64,000 nt of DNA, taken from the NCBI GenBank assembly GCA_963693365.1, contig CAVNZM010000006.1, forward strand, positions 10,667,355 to 10,731,354. Reading direction: 5' to 3'. The stretch is from Amoebidium appalachense. Taxonomy: Eukaryota > Protista > Ichthyosporea. A program made the position numbers and the translations under genes. Within the stretch, counting starts at the first letter, position 1. The number at the start of each line of letters is the position of its first letter. The notes beneath the pieces are model-generated. The model had not been told where the DNA came from, did no database searches, and saw only the letters and a list, made by a program, of their open reading frames with translations. Below are positions 3,076 through 56,976 of the stretch, one piece after another.

Positions 3076-4017
3076 CCGTGCATAACAGTCCCCTCGCGTT
3101 GGCATGTTATTGATAACAAATTTAAATACCCTGGCCTTTTTCTGATCAATGCATAATAAATTTAATTTAAATATGCACTAGCTTTTTTTTAGTACTACTA
3201 TCAACATGATTATCGTTAGACTTGTACTCTGTGTTACACTCCGGTTGCACGTTACTGATCTGCACCGCACTACTTTATTACGCATGTGTGTGTGCGCGCG
3301 CGCGTGCGCGTGTGCGCGTGCGTGTGTGTGGGTGTGTGCACGCGTGTATAATGCAAGTTTGTGCCACGGTGTGTATGTACAAATATGTGTGTTTGTGTGT
3401 GTGCGGGCGCGTGTATGTAACATATGCTGTGGACAGTCATTTGATGTATGCAGAATCTAATGTTCAAGCCGACATGCATCCGACAGCACGATGCTTTCTA
3501 ATGATATGTTTGTGCTGTGTATGTGCCACATGTACACGTGGTTGACATGAGCAGTAGGGTACATGTACAGTCGCGGAGCGCTGGGACAAAGTTTTTTAGG
3601 CGACCTGATTTAAAAAAAAAAAAACACACCTCATTGGCCCAACGTTTTGTAAAATATATTTTAAGAAAGAGGGGGTATTGGTATGGTCCGGTGAACAGGG
3701 GGGTGCGGCATGCCAGGAGCTACTACTAGAGAGAAGGGGGGGGTATGATTGGAGGGGGGGGTGTTCAGCTAACCTTATATGGATAAAGCAAAGTTACAAG
3801 GATTCAAGCCATTGGTTGGGCAAGACCCCTTTTGCCGAATATGGATAACAGATCATACACTGCTGTAGGCGGCGGTCAGGAATTGGCGCGCTCTTTACTG
3901 GTCACAACCAGTCCGGGAAGGCCATGAGCAGCATTGCCGAGCACACTGGAATACGGGAATGTTTGCGGTAACGTAGTCGCACTAGGGGGGCAGGGGGCCA
4001 GGCCCCAAGTGTTTAAA

Positions 4018-5412
4018 ATGAAGCCAGGCTGCCCTAAGGGCACAACACAGCGCCCTGGGCATAAAACAGGCGGAGCTAGGGAGGGAGCTGGGCGCAAAAA
4101 AAAAGATGCTGCATTTGTTCAGCCTTTAGCGAACTTTGCAGGTTTTGGGACGGCAAACAAAGCTGTTTTGCAGGAACTAAACGTAAACGTACAACCCGAA
4201 CAGCCCCCTCTATCTAAGGCCGCCGACATAAGGGCCCGTGTAGTTGAGGCAGGTAGCGTCCATTCGTTACCAAGAGAAATGGATCGGGCCCCTGCTCCAC
4301 ACCCACCAGACATACAGGTGCAACCCGACGAGGAACCTTTGCTAAATGCAGCAGCAGATGCGTACCGGGTAGACGAGGATGAAGGGGAGGAAGAGGGAGA
4401 AGATAATACGGACGGGGATGACGGTGGAGAGGAGTTTTCTGACGCGGCGGGCGAAACAATCAAGTCGCACCTGCACACAGTGAAAGAGAGTCTCAAAGAT
4501 GAGAAGACGCCTGTGGGGTGGCATCTTCCACCTCCCATTATAGGCTTTAAATTTGGGGGCGATCCAGCGCCTTTCTACAAACCCAGATGTTTTGCCTGGC
4601 TTCCGGAAAGGTTGTCTCCCGGTTTCATGGTGCCGTGCCCCTTCGATGATCACTACGTGGACCCCCACAACCACCCCAACCCACACCGTACTTCTCGCAA
4701 TGGGTTCATGAGCAACCCCGTAGGACGGCGTGTTATCGACTTTGACAGCTGCTACTACATTATCACGGCCCGGTACTTTTGTGACACATGCAAAAAAAAC
4801 TTTGCCGGCACAAACCCCCAGACAATTAAACGCCTTCCACTCTTCATGCGTGATCAGTTTCCGGCCTACCTTAGCCACCGCAGTGGGCTCGACCTAAAGG
4901 TGGTAACATTGTTGCGTGCACTGGCAGACAAAGGTGTGGGCCCAAACGCCTTTGCCACCCTCCTCTCGGAGCTCCACAAGCAGCGATACGACGAGCAGCG
5001 GCTCCTGTATTACTCGAGGGCGCTGCATTGGACCAAGTATGAACTCAAAAAGCGTAACGATTTCCGCCCCCACGACCAGCGCCTGACAGAACTTCCCCCA
5101 GAGGAGCAGGCGGCTAAGTTCTCGGCGTTTGGTGACAAAAATGGTTACGCTGGACATGTGCCTTCAGGCAAGTGTGCACTGCATTTTGGGTGTGTAAATG
5201 GTCCCCATTGTTTTGTATGCACGTGCTTGGGCATTTTTTGGGTTGGCTTGGTAGGGTTTTGTCTTATTATTTTTTATTTTTTTTTTAGGGGGGGGGGGGG
5301 GGACTTGGAAATGGGTTTTGGAAGTGTGGTCAATAAGTTTCTATTATGGTGGTGGTGGATGTGTGGTGGTGGATGTGCGCCTGTGAGTGTGCGTGTACTT
5401 GTGGGTCCGTGT

Positions 5413-5443
<31 letters not shown>

Positions 5444-5526
5444 GGGGAGGGGGGGAGGGGGACATGGTGATGGATTAGGTGGTGGTGGTGGCAATCAGTC
5501 ATGGTGGTGGTGGTGGTGGTGGTGGT

Positions 5527-5560
<34 letters not shown>

Positions 5561-5709
5561 GGGCAGAGGGATCATCAGAGGGGTGAAAGCATAACGGTCC
5601 ATGTACCAGTGAGTGTGCTTGGGAAATCGTGGAGAACTGTTATGCCTGAAATTAGATGGTGGGTGTGCGCATGTGTGTCTGTGTGTGTTGGGGGAAAGGA
5701 GGTGGAGAG

Positions 5710-5751
<42 letters not shown>

Positions 5752-5937
5752 GGGGGCACATGGTGGTAGACTGGATCTTGGTGGCGGTACTTAATGGTTA
5801 TTATAGTAGTGGCAGGAGGGTGTGGGGGGAAGGGCAAACGGACGTGCAGGGGACAAACTGCAGATGGGGCACAAAGGGGAAAGAAGGTGAAAGTTGGTGC
5901 AATGACTTGGAGGGTTTGCGCGCGCCGGGAGGCGGGG

Positions 5938-5973
<36 letters not shown>

Positions 5974-6407
5974 AACGGCCGGAGATGGGTGTGTAGCGTT
6001 TTTGAGATGGGAAAAGCCATACAGACTTACGAAAATACAGAGAGGTGAGATGAACACGAGGGACTAGAGGGAATGGGGGGGATGGTCCTGATGGGAGGGT
6101 GGTGGAGTTCTAACAGTACTTGGGGTTCAGGCAAATACCTGAGTGCCGTGTATACTGAGTTCAGCGACCGCACGGCAAAGTACCAGAGCCTGGACACGCA
6201 GCTCAAGCCCGTAAACAACGTGCTCAAGGCCGACCACACCTTCCAAATTGGGAAGCTCACCGGCATCAATGGGGAGCCTCTGTACCGAGGCCTATGGACT
6301 TGTGTAAACGAGCTTGGCGGTGTGTGGTCCCTCCTCTTCTCCCCCCCCTCCCCCCACTCTCCCCCAGGCCCCCTTCCCCCCCCCTCCCCCCCCCCCACAC
6401 ACGCCCA

Positions 6408-6438
<31 letters not shown>

Positions 6439-6696
6439 ACACGCCCCCTCCCCCCCCTCCCCCCCCCTCCCCCCTCTAGGGCCTTTAAATCTCTTAGGCT
6501 CCACATTTAATGAGGTGGCACACTGTGAGTAGAGGTTTGTAGTATGTGGGTTTTGGGGACAATTCTTGCCCTGTCGAGCAAAAACTAGGAAGCTCCAGAT
6601 ATGTGTGTATGTGTTTTTGCTGGGTAGAGATTGGGGTGGGCTGGGGTGGAGCTTTCTTTTGGCGGGGGAATCGGGGGGGGGGGGGGGGGGGGGGGG

Positions 6697-6732
<36 letters not shown>

Positions 6733-8223
6733 AGCTTCTGCCAAGCAGAATGGGAGTAGGGGCCAGTGATTGCAAGGGATGCAGGGGGGGGGGGGGGGGG
6801 GGAGAGACACCACCGTCGGGGTTGAAGGTAGAGAGGGCAAGAGGCCCGGGGTGGGGTGGGGGGGGGGGGGGGGGACAGTAGGTGCCATATGGAGGGCTGT
6901 CCCATGGTTTGGGGGGAGGGGGAGTGGGGAAGGATCGTGGGCACATGGGTTTGGGGGGAAGGCAGAGAGGGGGAAAGGATTGTGATCACAAGGGTTTAGG
7001 GGGAGGAAGGGGGAAGGATTGTAGGTACATGGGTTTAGGGGGGGGGGGGGGGGGGAAGATTTTGGGGGAAAGGGAGGCCTGGGGAAAGTATGTGGGCACA
7101 TGGGTTTGGGGGGAAGGAGGGGGAAGGGTTTTGGGGGAGAGGGAGGGGAAAGTATGTGGGCACATGGGTTTGGGGGGAGGGAGGGGGAAAGGATTGTGTG
7201 GGCACTGAAGTCTCGTGAAGGGCCATGTGGTAAGGGAAGCTAGAACATGCATGGCTGCTCGGAGATGCCCTCTCACACAGTGCGGCACCCCAGAGATCCG
7301 GGCGCAGGTATTTACACGGGACTGCAGCCACCAGGAGATTGAGCCCGTGATCCAGCGCATCTCTGCCACCACGGCGGCGCTCAACAGCAAGGGCCCGGCC
7401 TTCTTCTACACAGATCGGTGCTGCCAAGACCGGGCGTTTGTTGAGCGCATGTTTCCAACCCTAGCCCGGCCAAAATGCCCCGTCCGTCTGAACGAGGCTG
7501 CGCTGGTAAGCGTGACGGACGGTCTGCCTGGGCTGGAGCTGCCGGCCAACTACCCTAAGCCGGTGTACACCGACTGCCAGGGGGCGGTGGTGGCTACAGC
7601 GGCCATTCGTGCCGACCTGGAGGGGCAGCAGCACCGCGTGGTGGGGCTGGACTGCGAGTGGGTCTATCGGGTGGGCCAGGCGCGGTCCAAGGTTTGCACG
7701 CTGCAGATTGCCACCGCACGGGCCGTGTACATCTTCCACTTGGCACGCATGGGCCCCAACCACAGCCCGCCCGCGCGGCTGGTGGACGAGCTGATTGCGC
7801 TGCTTAGGGACCCCAGCATCATCAAGGTGGGCAAGCAGATCGGCACGGACTCGGCCCACCTCAACAAGGACTACGGCACCCCTGTGGCCAGCTATCTGGA
7901 GCTGGGCCGGTTCTGCTATGCCCGTGCAGCTATCACCTCTGCGGCCCGGGGCTTGGCCGACATCACTGCCCAGGTCATAGGCAAGAAGCTGCCCAAGCCG
8001 GCACTTGTTCGATGCTCCAACTGGCACGAGCCGCTATCAGAGGTGCAGGCCACCTACGCTGCCCTTGATGCATATGCGTCCCTGCAGGTCTACTCGGCCG
8101 TGGTCGATAGGCCAAACCTGTCAGGTGTGTATCCCACCTGCTTTTTGCCCCAGTGCTTATGTGCTTATGCCAGATATAGAAAGATTGTGGGCCCCCCAGA
8201 GGAGGAGGGGGAGGGGGAGGGGG

Positions 8224-8268
<45 letters not shown>

Positions 8269-10056
8269 GGCTGACCACATGGGCCAGTGTTCCAGTTGTG
8301 TTATTCTGGGTGTCGGGTGGCTATCAAAGGAGGGGGTGATTGGTGGTGGTGGTGGTGGTGGTGGGGGGGGGGGGGGGGGGGGGGGGGGGCTATAGCACTG
8401 TTAACACGTGCAAGTGCCACACAAGCTGGGCACTGGGAGAGGGGGGGGGGGGAGGGAGAAGGGGGGGGGGGGGGGGGGGGGGGGAAGGGGGGTTGCTAAG
8501 GAATATGCATTTGATTTTTGTGGAGCGAAGAGAAAAACGTTGGTGCTGTGGCTTTTTGGCTGAGTTTTTTGCTTCCCTCTATGACATGCAGCGCGGCTTC
8601 ATGCAAAGGCACTCGGTGAAGGGGTTGAGATTGTGCCCCGGCGGGGCCCACATGCTGCAGCAGCCACCGGGGTGGTGCTGGCTGTGCAGCCGGAGCGCTG
8701 GGGGGGCATGAAGGTGGGCAAGAAGCATGCAGTGGTGCGGGTGGATCAGGTGCTGTCGCCGGCCATGCAGGTGCCCTTTGGCCCCGACAAGGGCAAGACC
8801 CTGGGAGAGCTGGGCCCGCCGCCCTTTGAGCTGATGGTGCACCTGCAGTGGCTACGGCCCATTCAGCCCCCACCGGACCCAGGTGCCGAGGTGCCGGTGG
8901 TCCCTGACCCAGCCCCTCCCCCTGCCAGTCCTCCCCCTGCCGAGCAGCAGCAACCCCCTTGCCGGCCCACAGGCACCCCCCCAGGACCCCCAGGCAGCCC
9001 CGGGGGGCCTTGAGGCAGCCCCAGGGGGACCCGAGGCAGCTCCCAGAGAGGGCATGTTGGGCCAGGCACCGCCTGGGGAGGTGGTGTGGCAGACTGTGCT
9101 GAATGACGCCTTCCACTCCATTGCAAACACGGCGGACGGCACGTACAAGTCACACCCCCGCAGGGCTGAGTACGCACGCGCACTCAGCGAGGCAATATTT
9201 GTGTGGAATGAAGAGGATTACGGACATGTGAAGGTGCCCCCCCCCCCTCCCCCCCCCCCCCCAAAATAAAAAATAAAAAATAAAAATAAAAAAAACGGCA
9301 ACAACAACATGCGTGACTGACGCGCACACACACATACACTCGTTAGCACACACTCACCATTCCACCCACAACCATGCACACCTTCGACAAAACTTCTGAG
9401 GGAAGAGAGAGAGCCTGAGCCTCAGAGAGAGGGGGGGCAAGGGGGGGGGGGGGGGGGGGGGGGGGGAGGGGGGGGGAGGGGGGGGAGGAGAGTGGGGGTT
9501 ATTCATATGCCTAGAGAGAAATAATGTAGGGTTGTGGGGGGAAATAGCCACATGCATTTTTTACTTGTGTTGGGGGAGAAGATGGGGGGGGTGGAGGGGA
9601 GGGGTCCTACAATAACGGCAGGTATCAAAGTCTACCAAACCCAAATTGCAGTGTGCGTAGTAAATTAATATTGGCATCCTGCCTCACAGGGGGTGCTGGA
9701 GCAGAAGGGCATCGACATTGAAACCGAGCTCAAGGGCGGCGACCTGAGCTACTTCATGGAGCGCATCCGGCGGGTTATTCCCGACCCATACACGCTGGTC
9801 TCGCGGCTGGTGGAGTTCAAAAACACCTACAAGGATGTGCCGCCCGGACCGGATGGCAAGCCTCTGTTCAAGAAGGATGGCTTTGAAAGACTCGAGGCAA
9901 CATCCCCCCCCCCCCCCCCCCCCTCCCCTGCAGGCGCCCAACAACTCCACCACCACAGAAAAGATTCTTCGCTTATTTGTCATCCTTGGTTCATCTGCAC
10001 ACACACGCACACCCTAGCCTCCCCCCCCCCCCCCCCCCTCCCCCCCCCCCAAACAT

Positions 10057-10130
<74 letters not shown>

Positions 10131-10202
10131 CCCGCACGGCCCTTGCTGCCTAGCCAGTTGTTTTTTGCCTTTCCCTGCTCGTTTTTTTCCTTAGCAACCC
10201 CA

Positions 10203-10241
<39 letters not shown>

Positions 10242-11924
10242 ACCACACACACACACACACATACACACACACTACCACCACCACCACCCACCCATCTCTC
10301 TGATGTTTGCTTGTGCCCCCACAGTCGCTGCTCGAACACGCCCAAAATGGCTGTCTGTCGGACCCCCCCCGGCCTGCCCCTCTACTACGAGACCACTGCC
10401 GACGCAGATGGGCTCATGCGCTACCGCTGCATCCGGGGCACCAACGAGGTGGAGGGGGCAGTGCACAACCCCCTGGCCACCCACTTTGGGGCCACACGCA
10501 TGTCGCTGCGCCTGCTGGACGCCACCATGTCCAATAGGCGCCACCGCCACAACCTGCGTGCACACTACCGCAACCGCCTGGGCCAGGCATCGGGGCCCCC
10601 CCACTACAGCCCCTGGATTGTTGACGACATGGAGGCACTGGCGCTGATGCTGTACGGCCATCACCTCGACCCCCAGTGGGTACCCGTAGGCTGCTACAAG
10701 CTACCGGAGGAGTACTTCAACTTTGCCCCGCTCTCCTGTGTGGCCAATGCCCCGGCGCAGGAGCCAGTTGCGGTGCCCGCACCCCCACCTCCGTCTGATA
10801 ACATCGAGCCTGCAGCCAATGGCGTGATGGGCGGGCCAGAGGACTGTGAGGTCGAGGAGGGTGACGGTGCTGCCATGGGGGGGGGCAACCAGGTGGCGCG
10901 TGGTGCACCACAGCCGGACCCTGCACTGAGGGGCGACTACAAGTTCCTGGCGCAGAAGCAACATGTGGCCATCCCCTTCCTTCCGGTGCTTACCCCTCAG
11001 GAGCGCAAGCTATTCAGCACGCTGCTCCTGGGCACCTACAAGGCACATGCAAAGCCCAACGGCCAGCTGTTCGAGGCTTTGGCCCAAGACTTCAACAAGG
11101 CTGCCTCTGTGGCTGGGGGAATCTACATGAAGGATGCGGCCTACATCAAGAAGCATTTCGACAAGTGGAAGACCTGGCAGACGGCACATGCACAGCGCTC
11201 CACACACGAGGGCCTGGCAGATCACCGCAAGCGTATGCGCGAGGAGAGGGCAGACGCTGTGCCAGCAACCATACGGCCTGCCCCCTTGCCACCCCTCCCT
11301 GTTCCAGACGGTGTCGATGCAGGGGCGCAGCGTGAGCGGCCCTTGCCCATGCTAGTGGGCAAAAAGCATCGCAACATTGGCCCTGAGGGGCCCCTGCAGA
11401 TGGATTTGCCGGTGCCCCCTCCTATGCAGCCACCCCAGAGAGCCCCCAAGACCTGCAAGACGTGTGGCCGCCAGGGCAAGGGCTGCCCCGGCTCCAATCG
11501 GGCCAAGAGCTGCCCACGTTGGGTTGCAGCCAATCAGGATGCCATGCCACCAGCACCCGCGCTTGACATGCAGCAGGGCCATGTGCCGCACATGCCCCCT
11601 GCACCCCATCCAGGCCCGCACCACCCACATGGCTGGCCCCCACCGTGGGGCATCATGCCGCCTCAGCCCGGCCCTGCCTTCCCCATGCCTGGGCTACTGC
11701 CGCAGCACGGTCCCCATCCTTACTTGGGCCATGTGGGCCAGCCCTCGGCTGGTGGGCAGTTCCCACCCCCTTCTCGTGCATCTGCTGTGCTGGGCCTGGC
11801 GTTGCCACCTGCTGGAGAGACGCAGCTGCAATGGCACGATCGAAAGCAAAGTAATCGTGGCCGCAAGTCTGCAGGCAGCCAATCAGGATCTCAGAGTAGT
11901 CAGAGTAGCCAAACTAGTGTCTAA
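4018..11924 (+). CDS. ~1538-aa DUF6729-like / MULE-type DDE transposase-like protein with an inserted DEDDy (WRN/EXD2-like) 3'-5' exonuclease and a C-terminal zinc knuckle
   Basis: Exons 4018-5167, 6131-6319, 7294-8124, 8592-9233, 9690-9896 and 10325-11924 join in phase; introns 1 and 5 are GC-AG. Motifs: GGAREGAGRKKK; CPF..GRRVIDFDSCYYIITARYFCDTC..FPAYLSHRSGLD; LKADHTF (D1); FYTDRCC (D2); exonuclease VGLDCEW / GTDSAHL / YAALDA; LNDAFH (DxxH); GCLSDPPGLPLY; RGTNEVEG (E); CKTC..GC..C. The model needs two single-base removals in homopolymer runs (~8950-9010 and 10363-10370). Confidence 0.8.
6900..7206. repeat. G-rich minisatellite (~45-bp unit, about 6 degenerate copies) in intron 2 of the transposase-like gene
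   Basis: Recurring gggcacatgggtttggggggaagg...gggaaaggattgt / gggaaagtatgt. Confidence 0.8.
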
Positions 11925-26435: not shown

Positions 26436-28540
26436 TTTCTTTTTTTTTTTTGGAGGTCGGGGGGAAGGGAGGGAAATGGGGAGTTGCTTGGGGGAACAAA
26501 CGGTTGCAAAAGGGATAGAGCGCAGGGGGGATGGGGGGGAGGGGGGAACTGGGATGAGGAGACGGATACCCTTCAAGCGGCTCAGACGGGGCAGTCCCAA
26601 GCACAGCGGGGGCACTTGGGGGCTGGGCAATGAACGGCTGGTATGTGGGTACCCCGGGGCCGTACGGCGCAGGTAAATTGGGGGGCGGCCATGAATAGAC
26701 CCCCGCAGGGTGACCTGTGGGGACCATGATGCCGGGCACTGTGGGGTACATGGGGGCCAGGAGGGGCTTGCTCGTGGCCATGGCCCCCCCCAGTGTGCTT
26801 AGCCCGGGGGGAAGGCCGGAGGGGCCGGGCTGAGAGCTCCCGGACATTGTGCGTGGTTTCTGAGGCATCCGTCGTATATGGGCAAGAAGGTCCGGATGGT
26901 TGCGCTGGAAGTGCGGATGGCGAAAGATGTTGGGGTGCTTGCGCCCAAAATGCTTGTAGCCGTTGACCTGGGGGGGTGGCTGGGTGAGATTTCCGTGCAT
27001 GGTTGGTGCATGTTGTGCACAGCTGCAATTGCTGTGTCCGCATCGAACCTACTCTAGGCTCTGATCCATATGGGTAGCCGTAAAATAGCGTGCGACAAGA
27101 GTTGGAAAAACACATATCCATTGTTTTAATTTTCACTATGAAGCTCTCCCAAAAACCCTAGCTCTCGAAAACTGCAGTGCAAATCAGACCTCTGAGGTGC
27201 TCGGCGTGGATATGTTTCATTTTATAGCAGATATCCCGCATCTTGATAACAAGGATCGATAAAAGTCCGCATATAGCAACTGCATCAAACACAGAGGAAG
27301 TTTCCATACATGAGCTTGATAAATGCAAGTATATACATATGCACACACCCACCTGCCCTATCCACATACACCCACACGTCACCACAAAAGAGCCAAAGCC
27401 AAACGGATAGGGATGACACAAGAACACACAGAATCGTACACTCGAAAATAATGCCGTTTGACGACAAAAACAATACACGACCGAGCAGTGATATGGCTTT
27501 CACACCAAATGATGCCTTTAACTGCCTGCAAGCCCAGAAGTCATGACATGACTCCGGAACCAACACACACACAATATGGGGCTAAAAATTGGGCGCCAAA
27601 ATGAGTTGTGAATGTGACACTTGATTGTGGAATGCTATCTTCGAGATTTTGGCAGACTGCATGGCCGTACCGTTCGTGAAATCACGATCGCTGAGCTATG
27701 CAGTCGAAATGTTATGACCAAACAGACCAATAAATGTGAGTTTCAACGTAGATGAATGGTCAAAGTCTTCAGCTGATGACGCCACTGAAAACCACATAAA
27801 TTAGCTTTGAAGCGATACGAAATCGAACATTAAATTTTTAGCTCACTGCTTTTATGAAACGGAAACGCGGGTGTGTTAAAAAAAAAAAGACACTTACACG
27901 GTAGGAAAAGGAACAGGACATGAAACTAAGTGAATTGCTCTCAGCGACCCATAGTATTGCCACACACTGTGACACTTCACAAACAGCACAGCGCCACAAA
28001 AGTCGACACACAATATGCACAATGCTTCACACCACGCATAAAAATCACACGTGCGTGTAATCCACACACACACACACACGAGCAGACGTGACACGGACAT
28101 GCACGCTCGTGCAACATGCACATGCATGGCACGCTCGTGCAACATGCACATGCATGCAGCTGTTACAAAACATGCTGCAATGTGAACTGGCAATGAAGCA
28201 CCGTGCCCCAAAAGACAAACACACAACCTTAGCACAAATGCACAACCGAAGAGCCCCGCGCGCACACACACACACTGAAACAACAAACGTGAACATGTAC
28301 CTTGTTGAAGCCGTACATGTTGAGCTGCCTCACAAACGAGGTGTAGTTGCTCGTTTTGAACACGCTGTTGGCGCGCCCAAGGACGCGCTGAGTAAACACA
28401 TCTGTGTCTGGAATGACAACGCACGAGCCATCTGGGGACCACGTTATTGCATCGGAGTAGCTGGCATCGCTGACGAGGGCATGAAGCTTGAGGATGAACG
28501 TCGGGGTGCTGCTCTCTAGGATGAAGTGATGTGTACTCAT
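25395..28540 (-). CDS. HSF-type DNA-binding-domain transcription factor, 490 aa, 3 exons
   Basis: Exons 28540-28301, 26967-26570 and 26229-25395 total 1473 nt, in frame. HSF signature FILKLHALVSD..AITWSPDG..FKTSNYTSFVRQLNMYGFNK|V..FRHPHFQRNHPDLLAHIRR, with the intron at the position typical of HSF genes. Pro/Gln-rich tail. Confidence 0.9.
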
Positions 28541-30874
28541 ATGTGCTGGCCATAGGGCGCGGTCACATGGCCCTGGTGTGGGGGTGGGGTTTTGGCTGGT
28601 CTGCTACGTCTCTCTGTGAGAGATACGGCTCTGTTTTTGGTCGGTCGGAGTCTCATTAGCGCTACGCTTGGGCGTGGAAACCCACGGCCCGCACGGGGTT
28701 GCAGCAGACACCCCACACGTGCCCCTAAAGCTTCTGACCACGCCTATGCCCCTAATTCCTGGTTCCCTCGCCGTGTGTGGCGGCATGGACAATCCTGTTT
28801 GACCGAATTACTGTGTGCTTTTGAGAGTTTAAAATTCCCTGCTTTGGTCCTGCAGCCAGTTAAAAAAATGCGACTGCCTTGTGTCTCCAAATTGACAACA
28901 TACACCACACAATTGCGTAATGCAGGTTCCCTCCAAATGAAATGTAAACAGCCTGCCACTGCACCTAAATTACTGCACCTCGCTCCTATTTGTCCTTTAA
29001 CATAGTGCCCATTAATAATGACCTTATGGCCTGCATTTCTACACACCCAAGCGCGGGTGGGACGCTGCTATCCCGCTGAAAACGCAGGAGACGAAAACGC
29101 AAAACATCCCCCTACCGTGGGTGGGAAGGGCAATGACGGAGAAGTGAAAGACAGTGTGTAATAAAACAGACCATCCACAAAACCCCGTCCTGCCTCGGCA
29201 ATGAGCCTTTTACGCTACGCAGATCCGATTGGTGGAGCCAAATTTCTTAAGTTGCTGTGTGTGGGCGCGGCAAGAGGTCGTGCTTTCCGTTTAGGACATT
29301 TCACAATGAGTTATTTCGACTAACACGAGAGCTAGCTAAGCACCTAAATTTCGAAAATTCAGCATAACACGCTTATAGAATATAATGGACCTATATTTTT
29401 AGTGTTTCGTAACATAATTGGCGAGGCTGCTGCTAACCAGTTGTAGAATGCGGGGTTAGTGTCAATAAACTCTGGGCAACATTGATTGGCTGTTTATCAC
29501 GACAACCAACTGCTCACCTTATAGCCAATCAATCGTGACAAACCTGTATCCAATCGGAAATAGGCAGGTGGAACGTTCGCATTCTCCTGAGATCTACTCA
29601 GGAGGCCGCGCATGTTGCCGTCTGTGGCCCGGACACATAAAGTAGCACATGCCAACATAATTAAAACTTAATTCATCACATCTATAAACAGTGCGGGGGC
29701 GCAAGTTAGCGGCAACTGGAGCCTATGGGGCTCCAAGGATCACCGAAAGGACAACAAACCTTGGTGTTATGATATCTGCCTGTTGCTGCCGGGCGATCTA
29801 TTTGCGTGTAAGACAGAGGGGGGCAGGAATTCAAATAGATCACTACACTTCACAGTGACGCAGCCACACAGGTAACTAATTGTTGTGCTGTTGTGGATAT
29901 GGTCGTCATGCATGCTGCCACAGCGGGCACATAATAATGTTTTAATCCTCTGTCCGGATATCCGTTTGCCAAAACTTCATATTGTAGTGGCTTTACCGGC
30001 CTGGGATTCGACATTCTTGTGATCCGTCGGCCACCGTCGGACAGCTGAACCGTAGCCGTTAAGTTCGAATGTGCACCGAATACAGAAAACCGACGTGCAA
30101 AGTAGGACATCTGCTACACCACTATAGCCCTGCAAAAAGGGAGATGAGCGTTTATTGTTCTCGTTTCCCGTTGTATTTCCTAAGTCAATATGCTATCTTC
30201 AAGAACGTGTTGCATCTATTGTAGTAAGGCAACGCGACTCAACAGAGACCGACGTCGACGCTGCATATTTCAGAGTGGACACGTCATGACATCAATCGTT
30301 TGCCCCCTTCTAGATCGCGCAATGATTGGCTAGCCAGCTAAGCCATATTAGATTACAGTAAAACTGAAGCCAAAATTTCAGCCAATCACATAAAACGAAA
30401 ACTTTATGTGCAGTTGTGTACATTGAATGCAGACATGACTTGACTTATCAAACAAACTAATTAGGTCCTATCGAGCACGATATATCGAGCTAAGCTAGTC
30501 TATAGATAAGCTGATTTTTAGAACGTAATATGGCTATTCTTCTGACATTATATTAATAATACGGTCAAATGCTTCATTTCTGACCCATGTAGATTGCAAA
30601 GACATGGGGATTCCTATTGGCGCCCTGTTTACTACCATCGGCAGCCAATAGAAAGTCGCCGCACCGAAGTACATGTGCTTTTACGCCAGCCAACCAGTTG
30701 AGTGCATGTGTCTGAGAATTCCTCAAGTTGCCCATTTCGGAATAACAGGGTCTCTACCCGAAACAGTCACTTTTGAGGGTGATTATATCGGGATGTGAAA
30801 CTATCGGGTTGTCAATAGAGGGTTAGGGGAATCTATTTGCGCAAACCGAGAACATGGGTTGCGTACCTAGCTCA

Positions 30875-33342: not shown

Positions 33343-45309
<11,967 letters not shown>

Positions 45310-46608: not shown

Positions 46609-47542
46609 CGCACACACACACACACACACATACACATCTACAACAGGAAACACCATACTCGCCTTTGATTTCTATCGATGCTGAGCTCTGCCCATATATC
46701 GTTCCGGTGGTTTTTTTCCTTTTTGCAAAACTTCTAACATCCTGCACCGTGTTGTCCTGTGCGTCTTTGTACCCTGTAGTTTGTTTTCTCTTTAAAGCTC
46801 CCTCTACCTTCAATATCCCCTATGCGACACTCACGTTGCCCTTTCTCAACCACTATCACAAACTTCGGAACACACTGTCCTGTTGCAACAGCTACCTTAC
46901 TCATCCCTTTCACACTCTTCCCTTTCCCTGCATCACTTGAGATAACCCGAGTTCTGCCCCTTTGCTACCTCCCCTTAATCATTTCAACGGCTGTTTTCCT
47001 TTAACCCATAATTGTTTGCCACACCATGGGGTGATACCCCATAGTTGCTTGCCACGACAAATATTTCTGCTTTCTACCGCTGGTCTTTATCACAGCCCAC
47101 TTGGCGCCTGCACACGCCTGCAACTCTCTATGTATCCACTTTTTAGCACTTCCCTTTCCCGTGGCCACTTTCTCTGACTTCCCTTTGCCCCCCCCCCCCC
47201 CACCCTCCCTCGTTACCTGCTCACCTTACCTATCCAATCCCCCCTCCCCCCCCCCCCCCCCCCCCCCCCCCCTCCCCCTCTCTTCTCCCTGCAGCACCAC
47301 GGTCTGGGCTTGCCTGGAAGCACCATCTGGACACTGGTGCAGGAGTCATTGATGCCGACTACCGAGGAAACGTGGGGGTGGTCATGTTTAACCACGCAGA
47401 CACAGAGTTTGCAGGTGGGTGTTGGCTTCTATCGCGCTATGTCTCTTGTTGCTTGTGTTTGTGCAGTACGCATTATCTGGTGCTGCTGTTTCATGCATGT
47501 AAGCGCAGATGCTCCACGCCCCTCCCCCTTCCCCCCCCCCCC

Positions 47543-47573
<31 letters not shown>

Positions 47574-48705
47574 GGGGCCACACACACACACACCCAAACA
47601 CACTTCTGGGTGTCGTGGATGTCTCTAGAAATTTAAATTGCTTTCATCTAGCAACCCCCGTCCACAAATATCAACCAGCTTGTGCACTCCATTTTCTGCA
47701 TCAATAGTGTCCCTGGATTGCATCAGGATTCTGACACCCCCATCTGCATATCTGCATGGAACACCACTTTTCGAGTGCTTCTTCCTTTCCAATTGACCTT
47801 TTGCTGCAGTCACCCCTTTCCCATCCTCCACCCCCCGACCCTCTCTCTCCCTTTCTCCTCCCCCTTCCCCCCTCCCCTCCCCCCTCTCTCTTTCCCTCCC
47901 CTGGCCTACAGCCCCCTCTCGCCCTTCCTCTTCCTCGTCCTGTCGCTGCCCCCTCCCCTCCTCCCTCCCTCCCCCCCCCCCCCCCCCCCCTCCCCGCCTT
48001 TGCCTTTTCCTTTACCCCGAACTATGCACTGACTTGTGCCGTTGCAGTCAAGAAAGGTGACCGCATAGCGCAGCTGATTTTGGAGAGGATCTACATGCTG
48101 GACATCGAGAATGTGGAGGTGTGTATTTCAAACCCTGTGGTCCGTGCATAAGATGGCTGTGCAGACAAAAAGCTCTGCTTCCCTCACACACCGCTTCCTC
48201 CTCCCTACCTTCCACTGTTCTTGTCCACCCCGTCTCCCCTCCTCCTCCCCCCCTTCCCCTCGTCCCCATCCTTTATTCTGGCTCCGAAGCTGTGTGCCTA
48301 ACCTCCCCCCCCCCCGCGGGCATGGTTGCTCTGTGTCGTGCATCTGTAAGCACATACGCATTTTTCGCTGCACTGCATTAGTTTGCACACACATATTCAC
48401 CGTTTTGCTCACCTTGCTTGCATAAGCAACCCTGCTCGTCTTTGATCAAGACGGGTTGACCCTCCCAAGTTCAGTTGATGCTGCTGTCTGAGTTGGAGAG
48501 TCGTATATACGCGGGCTAAGGGGTCGAAACTCAATCGCAATTGATGACTTGGGCCCTCCCTGAGGATGGGCTCTGCTTATGACACATACTGTGCGCATGG
48601 CTATGTTGCATACTTGAATGTTTGCCTTTGCATGTGTCCTTCGTGTATGCGTACTTCGTACCGTGTTCCGCATTCAAACCCCCCCCCCCCCCCCCCACCC
48701 CATCC

Positions 48706-52930: not shown

Positions 52931-53723
52931 ATATCGTACTGTATAGCACACTCATAAGTCAGGATTCTAATTGACCCCAACTGGCACTATTTTTTAGTTA
53001 CGCCTTATCCCACGGTTCTAGCATACTGTACCCACACACTGTGTGTTTTTTTTATGGTGAAACGTTGGAGGCATGAGTATTAAGCAGCGTGAGTGTGCAA
53101 AAACGCCGTGTGACGGTCTTAGCCTCTGTTTTGGGAAGTTTGTGTGTTGTGTGTAAGCACAGGGGGGAAGTAATACAGCAGGGCCATTGGATACCATTGG
53201 CAACTGAATTCTCTGAAACTTTAAAGTATAGAATTATCTCCCTTCTTCCAGACCAACACATTGGCTGGCAAACATCGACTCGTGAGATTGATAATTTGCC
53301 GTGTACTTTTGCCGAATTCGTGTTGAAAGAGTAGGATGCGAGAATGGAGAGCAATGAGGGATGGGAAACTGAGGAGGATGACGACAAGGTGGGGAAGGGG
53401 GGGAGGGGGGGGGGGGGGGGGGGGGGGGGGGAGGGGAGGGGAGGAAGCGGGGGGAGGGAGGGTGAAAAGATTCCGGCATGCCCTATACATAGTCAAGATA
53501 AGAACATCGACATGCACTGAAACGGTGCGAGAAGTTTCAAGGAATGCAAATGTATGTCTTTACAACGAATTGCTCTGTACAAAGCTATAGATCCGTGGCA
53601 CTTGAGCACTACTAACTACAGATTATATACCAGGGACTATACTATATCGGGATTCACAATTATGTCCATGTGCATCCTGCATGTCGATGCCATCAAATTA
53701 GAGCCGAGTTTCGTTTGCACCAA

Positions 53724-54576
53724 CTAGACTCTGACAAAAGCCTGTGCGGCTGTGGCCGGCACCTCATCGCCAAACAAGACACTGCCGGGCCGCACGAGGT
53801 CAAGCCGGGCCTTGGGCACGGCCAGCGTGGCGTAGGAGCTCGCAGCGTGCAGCAGCAGCACGCTGCGGTCCAGCCCGCCCTCGCGCACGAGCCACTTGCT
53901 GTCCTTGACAAACCTCGCCAGCCCGCCCACCACGGCAGGCTTGTCCTCGGCGGCAAAGTGCGTCATGATGCCGGCCACGCTCAGCCCCGGCAGCTCGAGC
54001 ATGGCCAGGGCGTCGGCCCTGCCCTCCTCGCTGCCCACATCCAGCCACCTCCGCATGCCGCCCGACGAGAGCGCCACGTGCACAGGGACGGTGCTGTTGT
54101 GCCGTTGCGCCGTGTCCGACACCTCCTGGGCCACAGCCAGGCTGGTCACAAGCTCGTCCACACGGAGCCCCAGCGCAGACTCCACCTCGGCCGCGGTGGC
54201 GGGGCGAAGGCGAATGATGCGGCCGGTGAAGTTGCCGTCACGCACGGCCTGTGCCTCCGCGTTGGTGGCCACACCCACACAGGGGATGTCTGCGGCAAGG
54301 ATGGCCGGCAGCACAACCTCGATGCCCCACCCATAGGCGTTGTGCTTGAGGGCCGGGCAAATCTGTGGGCCAGCCTCGCCTAGAATGTCTTTGAGCGTGT
54401 CGATGTTCTGCCCGAATGCAGTGACTTTGGGCTGCAGGCTGGGGGCCACCGACGGAGGGGGTGGGGGCGGAGCTGGAAGCAGTGGGCGCAGCAAAGGCGG
54501 CAGTGGCGGCCAAGGCAAGGCCGAGCACGGCGGGGAGGAGGGCGCCGAAGGATCTGGAAGCACTGGAGCGGGTCAT
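53724..54576 (-). CDS. Secreted alanine-racemase-family (Bsr-like) N-terminal PLP-barrel protein, copy 1, with an apparent +1 frameshift in a C-run
   Basis: gccaccATG at 54576; signal peptide ending AAFA-AP; ICPALKHNAYG, GVATNAEA, VHVALSSGGM, GIMTHF, LHAASS, LDLVRPGSVLFGD. The G5 run at 54457-54461 has one more base than in copy 2. TATA at 54707-54714 and CCAAT at 54736-54740. Confidence 0.8.
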
Positions 54577-55522
54577 GGTGGCGTGCACGTAGAGCGTGAG
54601 GACAAAGTGTTGGTAAATGGAACTGGCGGGTATGGAGATTTGCTTTGGGTAACGCCTTGCGGAGGTTGTGTTGTCGACTAAAAGTATCCACTCTCGGGAT
54701 TCTCATTTTATATAGTTTTTGGTGATGTAGAATAGCCAATCAAAATGAGGACGTCTGCCGCATTGTTTACATTCCAAGTCACTGATCTAAAAATAGCACC
54801 CATGTCAAGATCTCGATTCTGAGCTCGAGGATCCGATATTACAGTATGTACATTGTAGCCTTACTCAAATCAGTGACAACTCTGCATTCAGCCTGAGCAA
54901 ATTCACCGTGTCAACGTACAGATATTCCTCTCTCTTACTCATCTATTTATATTCTTTTTTGCCACAAGCTGCAGCCTGTCTTTGATGCATGGGGGACACT
55001 GATTGGGGGTAACACCGCGCATTCCTGAGCACATTCCGAAGAAGTTTGACGTCACTGCATTCTCTGGCCGTCCCAAGCTTGCACAGGTCCTTGAATTGCA
55101 AGGCCGTGCAAGAACAGAGCCTGTTGCCATACAGCCTTACTTATATAAAAAATTTACTACTGTGTTATTTTGAATAAAATAAGGAGGAAGGACTGCGAAT
55201 TTCAATGATGGGCGAGCGATCTTACTTGCCGTTTGCAGCTAACTAGTGTTGTGCTGTCACTGCTGTGCTATTTTTATTCTGGCACAAGATCACGAATTGT
55301 AAACAAATACACAAAACTTTTATCAATCGTTTGATTGGATGCCCGTTCCACGCAAAAAGCTATATAAACTCCGGGAGTCAACAAAAGGCAACCAGTCAAC
55401 CATTCTCAGTTCCGAGGTCATACAGTACACACCTGTCAATCAGCGCCAACCTCCGGTTATCAAATCTAATTCTACCTACCATATCTCTTCTTGCACTCTG
55501 TAGTAGCTACGTGAACGCCACC

Positions 55523-56371
55523 ATGACCCGCCCCAGTGCTTCCAGATCCTTCAGCGCCCTCCTTCCCGCCGTGCTCGGCCTTGCCTTGGCTGCCACTGCC
55601 GCCTTTGCTGCGCCCACTGCTTCCTCCGCCCCCACCCCTCCGTCGATGGCCCCCAGCCTGCAGCCCAACGTCACTGCATTCGAGCAGAACATCGATACGC
55701 TCCAGGACATTCTAGGCGAGGCTGGCCCACAGATTTGCCCGGCCCTCAAGCACAACGCCTATGGGCGGGGCATCGAGGCCGTGCTGCCGGCCATCCTAGC
55801 CACAGACATCCCCTGTGTGGGTGTGGCTACCAACGCGGAGGCACAGGCCGTGCGTGACGGCAACTTCACCGGCCGCATCATTCGCCTTCGCCCCGCCACC
55901 GCGGCCGAGGTGGAGTCTGCGCTGGGGCTCCGTGTGGACGAGCTTGTGGCCAGCCTGGCTGGGGCCCAGGAGGTGTCGGACACGGCGCAGCGGCACAACA
56001 GCACCGTCCCTGTGCACGTGGCGCTCTCGTCGGGCGGCATGCGGAGGTGGCTAGATGTGGGCAGCGAGGAGGGCAGGGCCGACGCCCTGGCCATTCTCGA
56101 GCTGCCGGGGCTGAGCGTGGCCGGCATCATGACGCACTTTGCCGCCGAGGACAAGCCTGCCGTGGTGGGCGGGCTAGCGAGGTTTGTCAAGGACAGCAAG
56201 TGGCTCGTGCGCGAGGGCGGGCTGGACCGCAGCGCGCTGCTGCTGCACGCTGCGAGCTCCTACGCCTCGCTGGCCGTGCCCAAGGCCCGGCTTGACCTCG
56301 TGCGGCCCGGCAGTGTCCTCTTTGGCGATGAGATGCCGGCCACGGCCGCACAGGCTTTTGTCAGAGTCTAG
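55523..56371 (+). CDS. Secreted alanine-racemase-family (Bsr-like) N-terminal PLP-barrel protein, copy 2, 282 aa, intronless
   Basis: gccaccATG at 55523, uninterrupted to TAG at 56371. Same motifs as copy 1, with the PLP lysine in LKHNAYG. TATATAAA at 55361-55368 and ATTGG at 55334-55338. Confidence 0.9.
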   Translation: MTRPSASRSFSALLPAVLGLALAATAAFAAPTASSAPTPPSMAPSLQPNVTAFEQNIDTLQDILGEAGPQICPALKHNAYGRGIEAVLPAILATDIPCVGVATNAEAQAVRDGNFTGRIIRLRPATAAEVESALGLRVDELVASLAGAQEVSDTAQRHNSTVPVHVALSSGGMRRWLDVGSEEGRADALAILELPGLSVAGIMTHFAAEDKPAVVGGLARFVKDSKWLVREGGLDRSALLLHAASSYASLAVPKARLDLVRPGSVLFGDEMPATAAQAFVRV

Positions 56372-56976
56372 TTGGTGCAAACGAAACTCGGCTGTAATTT
56401 GATGCAGCGACATGCATGTAATATAATCCCTGGATATATAAAGTCTGTATTATAATACTCAAATGCACGGATCTATCTTTGTATCTAACTAATATTAGTC
56501 GTCATAAAAACGTACGGTAGACAGCTGCACAGAATTCTCGCTTGCATACATAGCCCGATATCGATGAGACTTCGTTGCATTTTCTCTTACCATGTACCGG
56601 TCCATGCTTAATGCATGAATCCTCTAACAAATCTGGACGTATACGTTGTAAATAGATCATGGTTATTGAATCCAGTTTTACAAAATCCCTCCCCCCTCCC
56701 CCCTCCCCCTCTCCCCCCTTCAACCGTACCCTCCCCCCCCTCCCCCCATTTCTTCCCTGCCTCTCGTCGCTCACGGTTCTCAGGCGTCCCAATGACTCTT
56801 AACGCCTGGCAATCGAGATTCTCTGTTGCAATATTTCCTTTTGCCGATGTGTTTCTGGAAGAAGCTAGGTTTTCTACTTCTTCTTTTTTTTTTTTGATTA
56901 AAAAAAAAAAACAAAAAAAAAAAAACGGTATGCAATGTGTTTGCGGTGCTACTGGGTACCTTTCTCTCCCCATTGA

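Follow-up and report, generated by a model that had tools for sequence, protein, structure and literature searches.

A duplicated, likely secreted racemase-derived barrel in a eukaryotic genome: a possible single-domain PLP binder

Results

The window (the whole 64-kb stretch of DNA that was analysed) contains a pair of head-to-head reading frames, here called copy A and copy B, which correspond to the barrel half of the bacterial broad-spectrum racemases (Bsr). The features of the locus are the following.

53691-56404, no strand: inverted-repeat unit, with arms at 53691-54592 and 55507-56404 and a 914-nt unique spacer that holds both promoters
53724-54576, minus strand: copy B, which lies head-to-head with copy A and is about 97% identical to it, with its ATG at 54576 and its stop at 53724; frame broken near 54457
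54708-54740, minus strand: copy B promoter boxes, a CCAAT box 164 nt ahead of the ATG and TATATAA 138 nt ahead of it
55334-55367, plus strand: copy A promoter boxes, a CCAAT box (ATTGG, 55334-55338) and TATATAA (55361-55367), 189 and 162 nt before the ATG
55523-56371, plus strand: copy A, intronless 849-nt open frame of 282 aa, with a signal-like peptide and a Bsr-type PLP TIM barrel and without the C-terminal domain
55523-55609, plus strand: predicted signal peptide, residues 1-29, from hydropathy and from alignment to the bacterial Bsr signal peptide and cleavage site
55670-56329, plus strand: Ala_racemase_N barrel, residues 50-269 (PF01168, E 1.3e-38; AlphaFold model pLDDT 88; TM 0.81 to 4bf5)
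55748-55750, plus strand: Lys76, the position of the PLP Schiff-base lysine, invariant in 29 of 29 aligned homologues

An earlier sequence-only reading had described one gene here, for a secreted racemase-like protein. The frame of copy A is indeed open, intronless and GC-rich (GC 0.69, GC3 0.82), and its product does contain a Bsr-type barrel. However, the gene is one of an inverted pair with further paralogues, and the protein is the N-terminal half only, without the C-terminal domain and the catalytic Tyr.

The arms of the inverted repeat are 91-97% complementary. In copy B the frame is broken by a single additional base within a homopolymer run around 54457, and this base is missing from the sole covering contig of short-read runs X1 and X8, while run X3 has no cover at that point. 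The frameshift was discounted as an assembly slip, and once it is discounted the frames of both copies are open. A CCAAT box followed by TATATAA occurs exactly twice in the 64 kb, once ahead of each ATG, and GCCACCATG is found at both ATGs, so the TATA, CCAAT and Kozak signals that had been named for copy A are all present. When the 200 nt upstream of the two arms were compared, 109 identities were found against a shuffled mean of 107, which is background, and dS between the coding regions of copies A and B is 0.057. This suggests that the pair is an old inverted duplication that has been kept alike by gene conversion. A 36-nt element at 54763-54798, just upstream of the copy B CCAAT box, recurs at another locus in runs X1 and X3, again beside a CCAAT box, and is possibly a regulatory element common to the family.

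Contigs less than 95% alike in runs X1, X3, X8 and X9 indicate further paralogues, although numbers of contigs are not copy numbers. Five X1 contigs have in common a change at 55768 that is absent from copies A and B. The 3' end was seen for one paralogue type only, whose loose end at 53745 (X1 and X8) reads E-L-F-V-S-V-stop by hand translation, with the same stop codon as the window copies; a loose end at 56328 in run X9 is in frame toward the same tail. In run X10, all seven listed differences over 55599-56256 are G>A, as from a base-converted (methylation) library, and this run was excluded from the paralogue comparison because it shows G>A changes only.

Exons of an HSF-type DNA-binding protein (28232-28603, minus strand), a RING (NF-X1-like) protein (42693-43415, minus strand) and a dUTPase (47294-48119, plus strand) identify the host as a eukaryote. 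The dUTPase gene, with GT-AG introns at 47.3-48.1 kb, is the nearest identified intron-bearing gene and lies 6-8 kb from the pair, which agrees with the intron-bearing neighbourhood reported earlier. Long ORFs with a DUF6729 and 3'-5' exonuclease domain at 3928-11921 (plus strand) are probably a DNA transposon.

An intronless, GC-rich frame whose best matches are all bacterial could be bacterial contamination or the product of a chimeric assembly, and no short-read contig reaches from the pair to the intron-bearing genes. However, the stretch is present, in whole or in part, in 9 of the 24 listed runs, which come from three studies (one of which may be the source of the window). The step from coding sequence to noncoding flank is bridged by contigs in three runs: record 3 of X1 and record 22 of X8 cross the spacer and both 5' ends, and record 16 of X3 joins the copy A stop to its flank. 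Codon likelihood over 275 codons was -292 with a host table made from seven in-frame window stretches and -327 with an Aeromonas table made from two genes, and A. caviae bsr, the closest of the named bacterial genes tested, is 59.6% identical at the DNA level. Taken with the eukaryotic promoter boxes and Kozak context, these results make contamination or chimerism extremely improbable and support the residence in a eukaryotic genome that had been proposed.

Ala_racemase_N is the sole Pfam domain in copy A, and the earlier assignment to Bsr rather than to Alr was confirmed by several comparisons. Among NCBIfam models the Bsr-type NF009879 (E 1e-67) ranks ahead of alr TIGR00492 (E 6e-23), with a score of 228 bits that is under the family cut-off of 434 because the match spans just positions 44-271 of 406. 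In a PDB sequence search the top six matches were Bsr, Bar and Lyr, from E 2e-73 (4bf5) to 6e-46, whereas the best ordinary Alr was at E 8e-15. The AlphaFold model fits A. hydrophila Bsr 4bf5 with an rmsd of 1.3 A. Rfam gave no match.

Hydropathy of copy A peaks in the 15-residue window at residues 10-24, which is followed by an A-F-A/A-P site that lines up with the Aeromonas signal cleavage site. This fits the signal peptide of the earlier reading, and export of the product by secretion is predicted to be likely. All three N-glycosylation sequons previously listed are present (N49, N114 and N159); N114 stands where 85% of Bsr have Gly, and the N49 sequon is gone in copy B.

Copy A ends where the Bsr C-terminal domain starts. 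The catalytic Tyr column, which is Tyr in 54 of 55 Bsr-like proteins (a conservation set thinned from 144), has no counterpart in it. When full-length Bsr and C-terminal parts were used in tblastn against all six frames of the 64 kb, the C-terminal domain was absent from copy A, from copy B and from the whole window, a search that reaches 53 kb downstream of copy B. Additionally, a 127-sequence profile of this domain gave a best E of 6.3 on both strands of the window, compared with E 1e-26 at a control Alr locus. A likeness seen by eye to the start of the domain, in frame behind the copy A stop, was rejected, as copy B has an indel there and no profile match was obtained. Both PF01168 and PF00842 were found in 9 of 9 homologues from one search and, in a larger search, in all 120 matches listed of 379.

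Short bacterial matches (50 examined, 36 printed) stop at scattered points. Four of the 36 printed database proteins (P0027, P0036, P0039 and P0054) end at Bsr-equivalent 277-282, near the same domain boundary, and the N-terminus of P0027 is signal-like; these four may be fragments or independent barrel-only forms. A metagenomic protein of 2222 aa (P0013) has a Bsr-like region at 1712-1972 and is a possible fusion.

The available text of PMC4542195 describes the racemases of this family as two-domain head-to-tail dimers, with an active site built from the barrel of one chain and the beta-domain of the other and with a Lys/Tyr pair that requires the C-terminal domain. By that mechanism copy A alone would have neither the second base nor the contacts that normally form the dimer, because the C-terminal domain is missing. 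Judged from its sequence, the copy A product on its own is predicted not to be a normal racemase, and the implied production of non-canonical D-amino acids is not supported, since the missing half of that two-domain dimer is supplied by neither copy and nowhere in the window.

Of the 42 columns with at least 90% conservation in Bsr, copy A keeps 35; it keeps 26 of the 43 conserved at 70-90% and 61 of the 157 below that. The available text of PMC4542195 names five invariant PLP residues on the barrel side (Lys, Tyr, Arg, His and Gly), and at the sequence level all five are found in copy A, as K76, Y80, R174/175, H205 and G263; position 174 is Gln in one paralogue, and this favours R175 as the conserved Arg. 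S246 and R261 are also present, and the changed residues beside Lys76 are P73, H77 and R82. Losses cluster in the N-terminal W-x-E strand, which presumably pairs with the beta-domain, and in the N169/N174-G175 loop. The strand is lost together with the conserved Asn residues (in Bsr numbering N167, conserved at 98%, and N174, at 84%). In the Bsr loop G-M-x-R-N-G and its preceding Asn, the Arg is kept, both Asn and the Gly are lost and one residue is deleted; PDB 4beq is an R173A/N174A mutant of this loop.

Between copies A and B dN/dS is 0.45, with 12 synonymous and 15 non-synonymous changes (P 0.036 against neutrality). Differences from paralogues were scored in two subsets. The first had 10 synonymous of 25 (P 0.10), these being the 25 classed from the 40 rows shown out of 114 after seven X10 rows, three X9-only rows and five rows beside compensated gaps were dropped. 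The second, 14 of the 40 rows shown out of 146 and from one paralogue contig, had 8.5 synonymous of 14 (P 0.016). Constraint on the copies and paralogues is real but moderate.

In a BLAST search among 280 stored proteins, the top 13 non-self matches were 47-50% identical and the named ones were Aeromonas; the barrel of copy A is 48-51% identical to Aeromonas-type Bsr. A quick tree of 74 rows put copies A and B, at the end of a long branch, among the 63 rows of the Bsr side, which has an SH-aLRT of 98; the viral and Alr rows are outside that side except for one outgroup row. Across this tree and the careful one described next, the branch measures 1.2-1.5 changes per site. BLAST and tree thus uphold the bacterial Bsr origin that had been suggested. 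In a careful tree of 36 rows, copy A and ten Aeromonas/Chromobacterium-type rows made up one side of a 78/89 branch, and an insertion of one residue, placed ahead of the strand that runs to the lysine, is found in exactly these 11 of the 36 rows and in none of the other 25. Backed by this common insertion, the tree weakly suggests that copy A is sister to Aeromonas/Chromobacterium Bsr, and the nearest relatives are of this type rather than the Vibrio/Pseudomonas type named earlier. Acquisition of the gene pair from an Aeromonas-like bacterium is likely on these comparisons. According to the available text of PMC5898190, Bsr is mainly Gram-negative.

A viral search gave 72 loci. Of these, 70 are alanine-racemase-like genes on viral contigs L010-L079, many in giant-virus bins, and share 21-31% identity with the query. 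A giant virus as the vector was rejected, since the four viral loci included in the tree grouped with the outgroup, where they form a branch of their own. Protein searches named no eukaryotic homologues. However, a control search with the HSF exon also found nothing, so the absence of eukaryotic relatives is weak evidence and these collections say little on eukaryotic spread. A GTDB scan gave one irrelevant locus among the 601 stretches listed, a metagenome scan gave none among 598 stretches, and a family-specific pattern had no match in metagenomes or in viral contigs.

Discussion

The explanation that accounts best for these data, with about an even chance of being correct, is that copy A encodes a domesticated, likely secreted single-domain binder of PLP (vitamin B6) that derives from Bsr, likely from an Aeromonas-like bacterium, rather than a racemase. 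In the proposed sequence of events, the bacterial Sec signal would have been reused for the eukaryotic secretory pathway after transfer, and the exported barrel would be glycosylated. Dropping the beta-domain would have removed the head-to-tail dimer and with it the second base (Tyr), leaving a monomeric barrel in which PLP could remain attached to Lys76 within a pocket open to solvent, the arrangement found in YggS/PLPBP. Such a protein might capture or carry B6 outside the cell and react with amino acids or amine compounds to give adducts, but would not racemise them. Its affinity for PLP may be low, given the changes beside Lys76 and the loss of the PLP contacts made by the C-terminal domain.

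Other readings of the barrel can be set against this one. The secreted barrel could bind peptidoglycan stem peptides or peptides ending in D-amino acids through the wide entry channel of Bsr, with or without PLP, and serve as a sensor, adhesin or decoy for bacteria. The available text of PMC7890096 reports that BsrV binds muropeptides and sacculi, the product here is likely secreted, the family is multi-copy and diversifying, and the barrel-side residues R121, R123 and Y247 are kept. However, BsrV binding as described there sits in the dimer channel, to which the missing domain contributes, and of the four entry residues named in that text (N207, Y208, Y246 and D300) just one has a match in the alignment, at the Y246 position. 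This reading is unlikely, and the role towards bacteria raised earlier is a bare possibility. It is also conceivable that copy A is half of a split racemase, with a separate gene elsewhere encoding a secreted C-terminal domain and the two reassembling an active enzyme. The cut at the domain boundary would suit such an arrangement, and an active site that is built in trans from a barrel and the beta-domain of another chain, as the available text of PMC4542195 has it, makes it structurally possible. Against it are the 64-kb window without a C-terminal domain and the loss of the W-x-E strand, N167 and N174, the last being one of the two loop residues replaced in the 4beq mutant; a split enzyme is quite unlikely.

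Judged a shade less probable again is a decaying or near-neutral relic, in which a truncated transfer was duplicated and has no present function. Half of the enzyme is missing, the tree branch of the copies is long, dN/dS is only modestly under 1, and no RNA support was found, no RNA run being listed among those that contain the stretch, although the two runs guessed to be RNA (X12 and X13), with no contigs over the pair, say nothing either way on expression. However, both frames are open apart from the assembly slip, conserved columns are preferentially kept (35/42 versus 61/157), and the promoter boxes have survived in a spacer that is otherwise no more alike than background (109 versus 107). 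A new one-base PLP chemistry outside the cell, such as elimination or half-transamination of amino acids, could draw on Lys76 and the retained PLP contacts, on the new pocket residues H77 and W176, and on the precedent of aldolases and dehydratases within fold type III. The fold-type-III enzymes found in the fold search, aldolases and dehydratases included, are all two-domain, though, and single-domain members have no shown activity in the available text of PMC9605639, which leaves this chemistry highly improbable.

If the PLP-binder reading is correct and PLP is bound, the family would be a natural experiment on what a lone fold-type-III barrel can do, and a case in which a transferred enzyme was domesticated through the loss of its catalytic half. 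PLPBP/YggS is without an agreed activity, and here the same architecture would have arisen once more, out of an enzyme whose mechanism is known and in a product that is likely secreted and directly assayable. It is possible, if somewhat doubtful, that the eukaryote arrived independently at a PLPBP-like barrel: a periplasmic racemase obtained from bacteria would have been severed at the boundary between its domains, its export signal would have been retained, and the resulting secreted family would capture B6 or peptides of the bacterial wall outside the cell.

That a eukaryote should gain a gene of the racemase family by transfer is in itself ordinary, with many cases on record. The available text of PMC5169069 counts 14 events of Ala_racemase_N transfer to eukaryotes, and copy A resembles the horizontally acquired genes of this family (S. 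pombe alr1/alr2, oomycete, trypanosomatid and others) in being a bacterial Ala_racemase_N gene in a eukaryote. In the available part of that survey a signal peptide is noted for one DAO event only, and its Ala_racemase_N table (PMC5169069 supplement 4) names no Bsr or Aeromonas donor. A literature search, with most subscription papers outside its scope, found no barrel-only secreted Bsr in a eukaryote.

Copy A is like Bsr (BsrAh 4bf5, BsrV 4beu/7agz, P. putida Bar 4dyj and Proteus Lyr 4dza; NF009879) in its predicted signal peptide, its barrel sequence and fold and in keeping the PLP lysine and phosphate-side residues, and it has the insertion of the Aeromonas/Chromobacterium Bsr. Unlike Bsr, it is without the C-terminal beta-domain (PF00842), the catalytic Tyr, the W-x-E strand and N167/N174, and the pair has a eukaryotic promoter, sequons and multiple copies. 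By its sequence, copy A descends from Bsr but does not itself belong with the active Bsr enzymes.

The other close comparison is with PLPBP/YggS/PROSC/PipY (COG0325), which like copy A is a single-domain fold-type-III barrel. The available text of PMC9605639 describes PLPBP/YggS as a single domain in which the PLP site is exposed and a second catalytic chain is lacking, and such barrels as binding PLP without a shown racemase activity. A fold search with the copy A model found PLPBP-type structures at Z 19-21 with 13-17% identity, and no YggS-family model was among the nine NCBIfam matches to copy A (E up to 0.1). Unlike PLPBP/YggS, copy A descends from Bsr in the tree, and it has a signal-like peptide where the roles described in the available text of PMC9605639 are cellular; known PLPBPs are intracellular, and an extracellular B6 role for the copy A product is predicted only. 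The best reading by analogy is that the copy A product converges on the YggS/PLPBP architecture.
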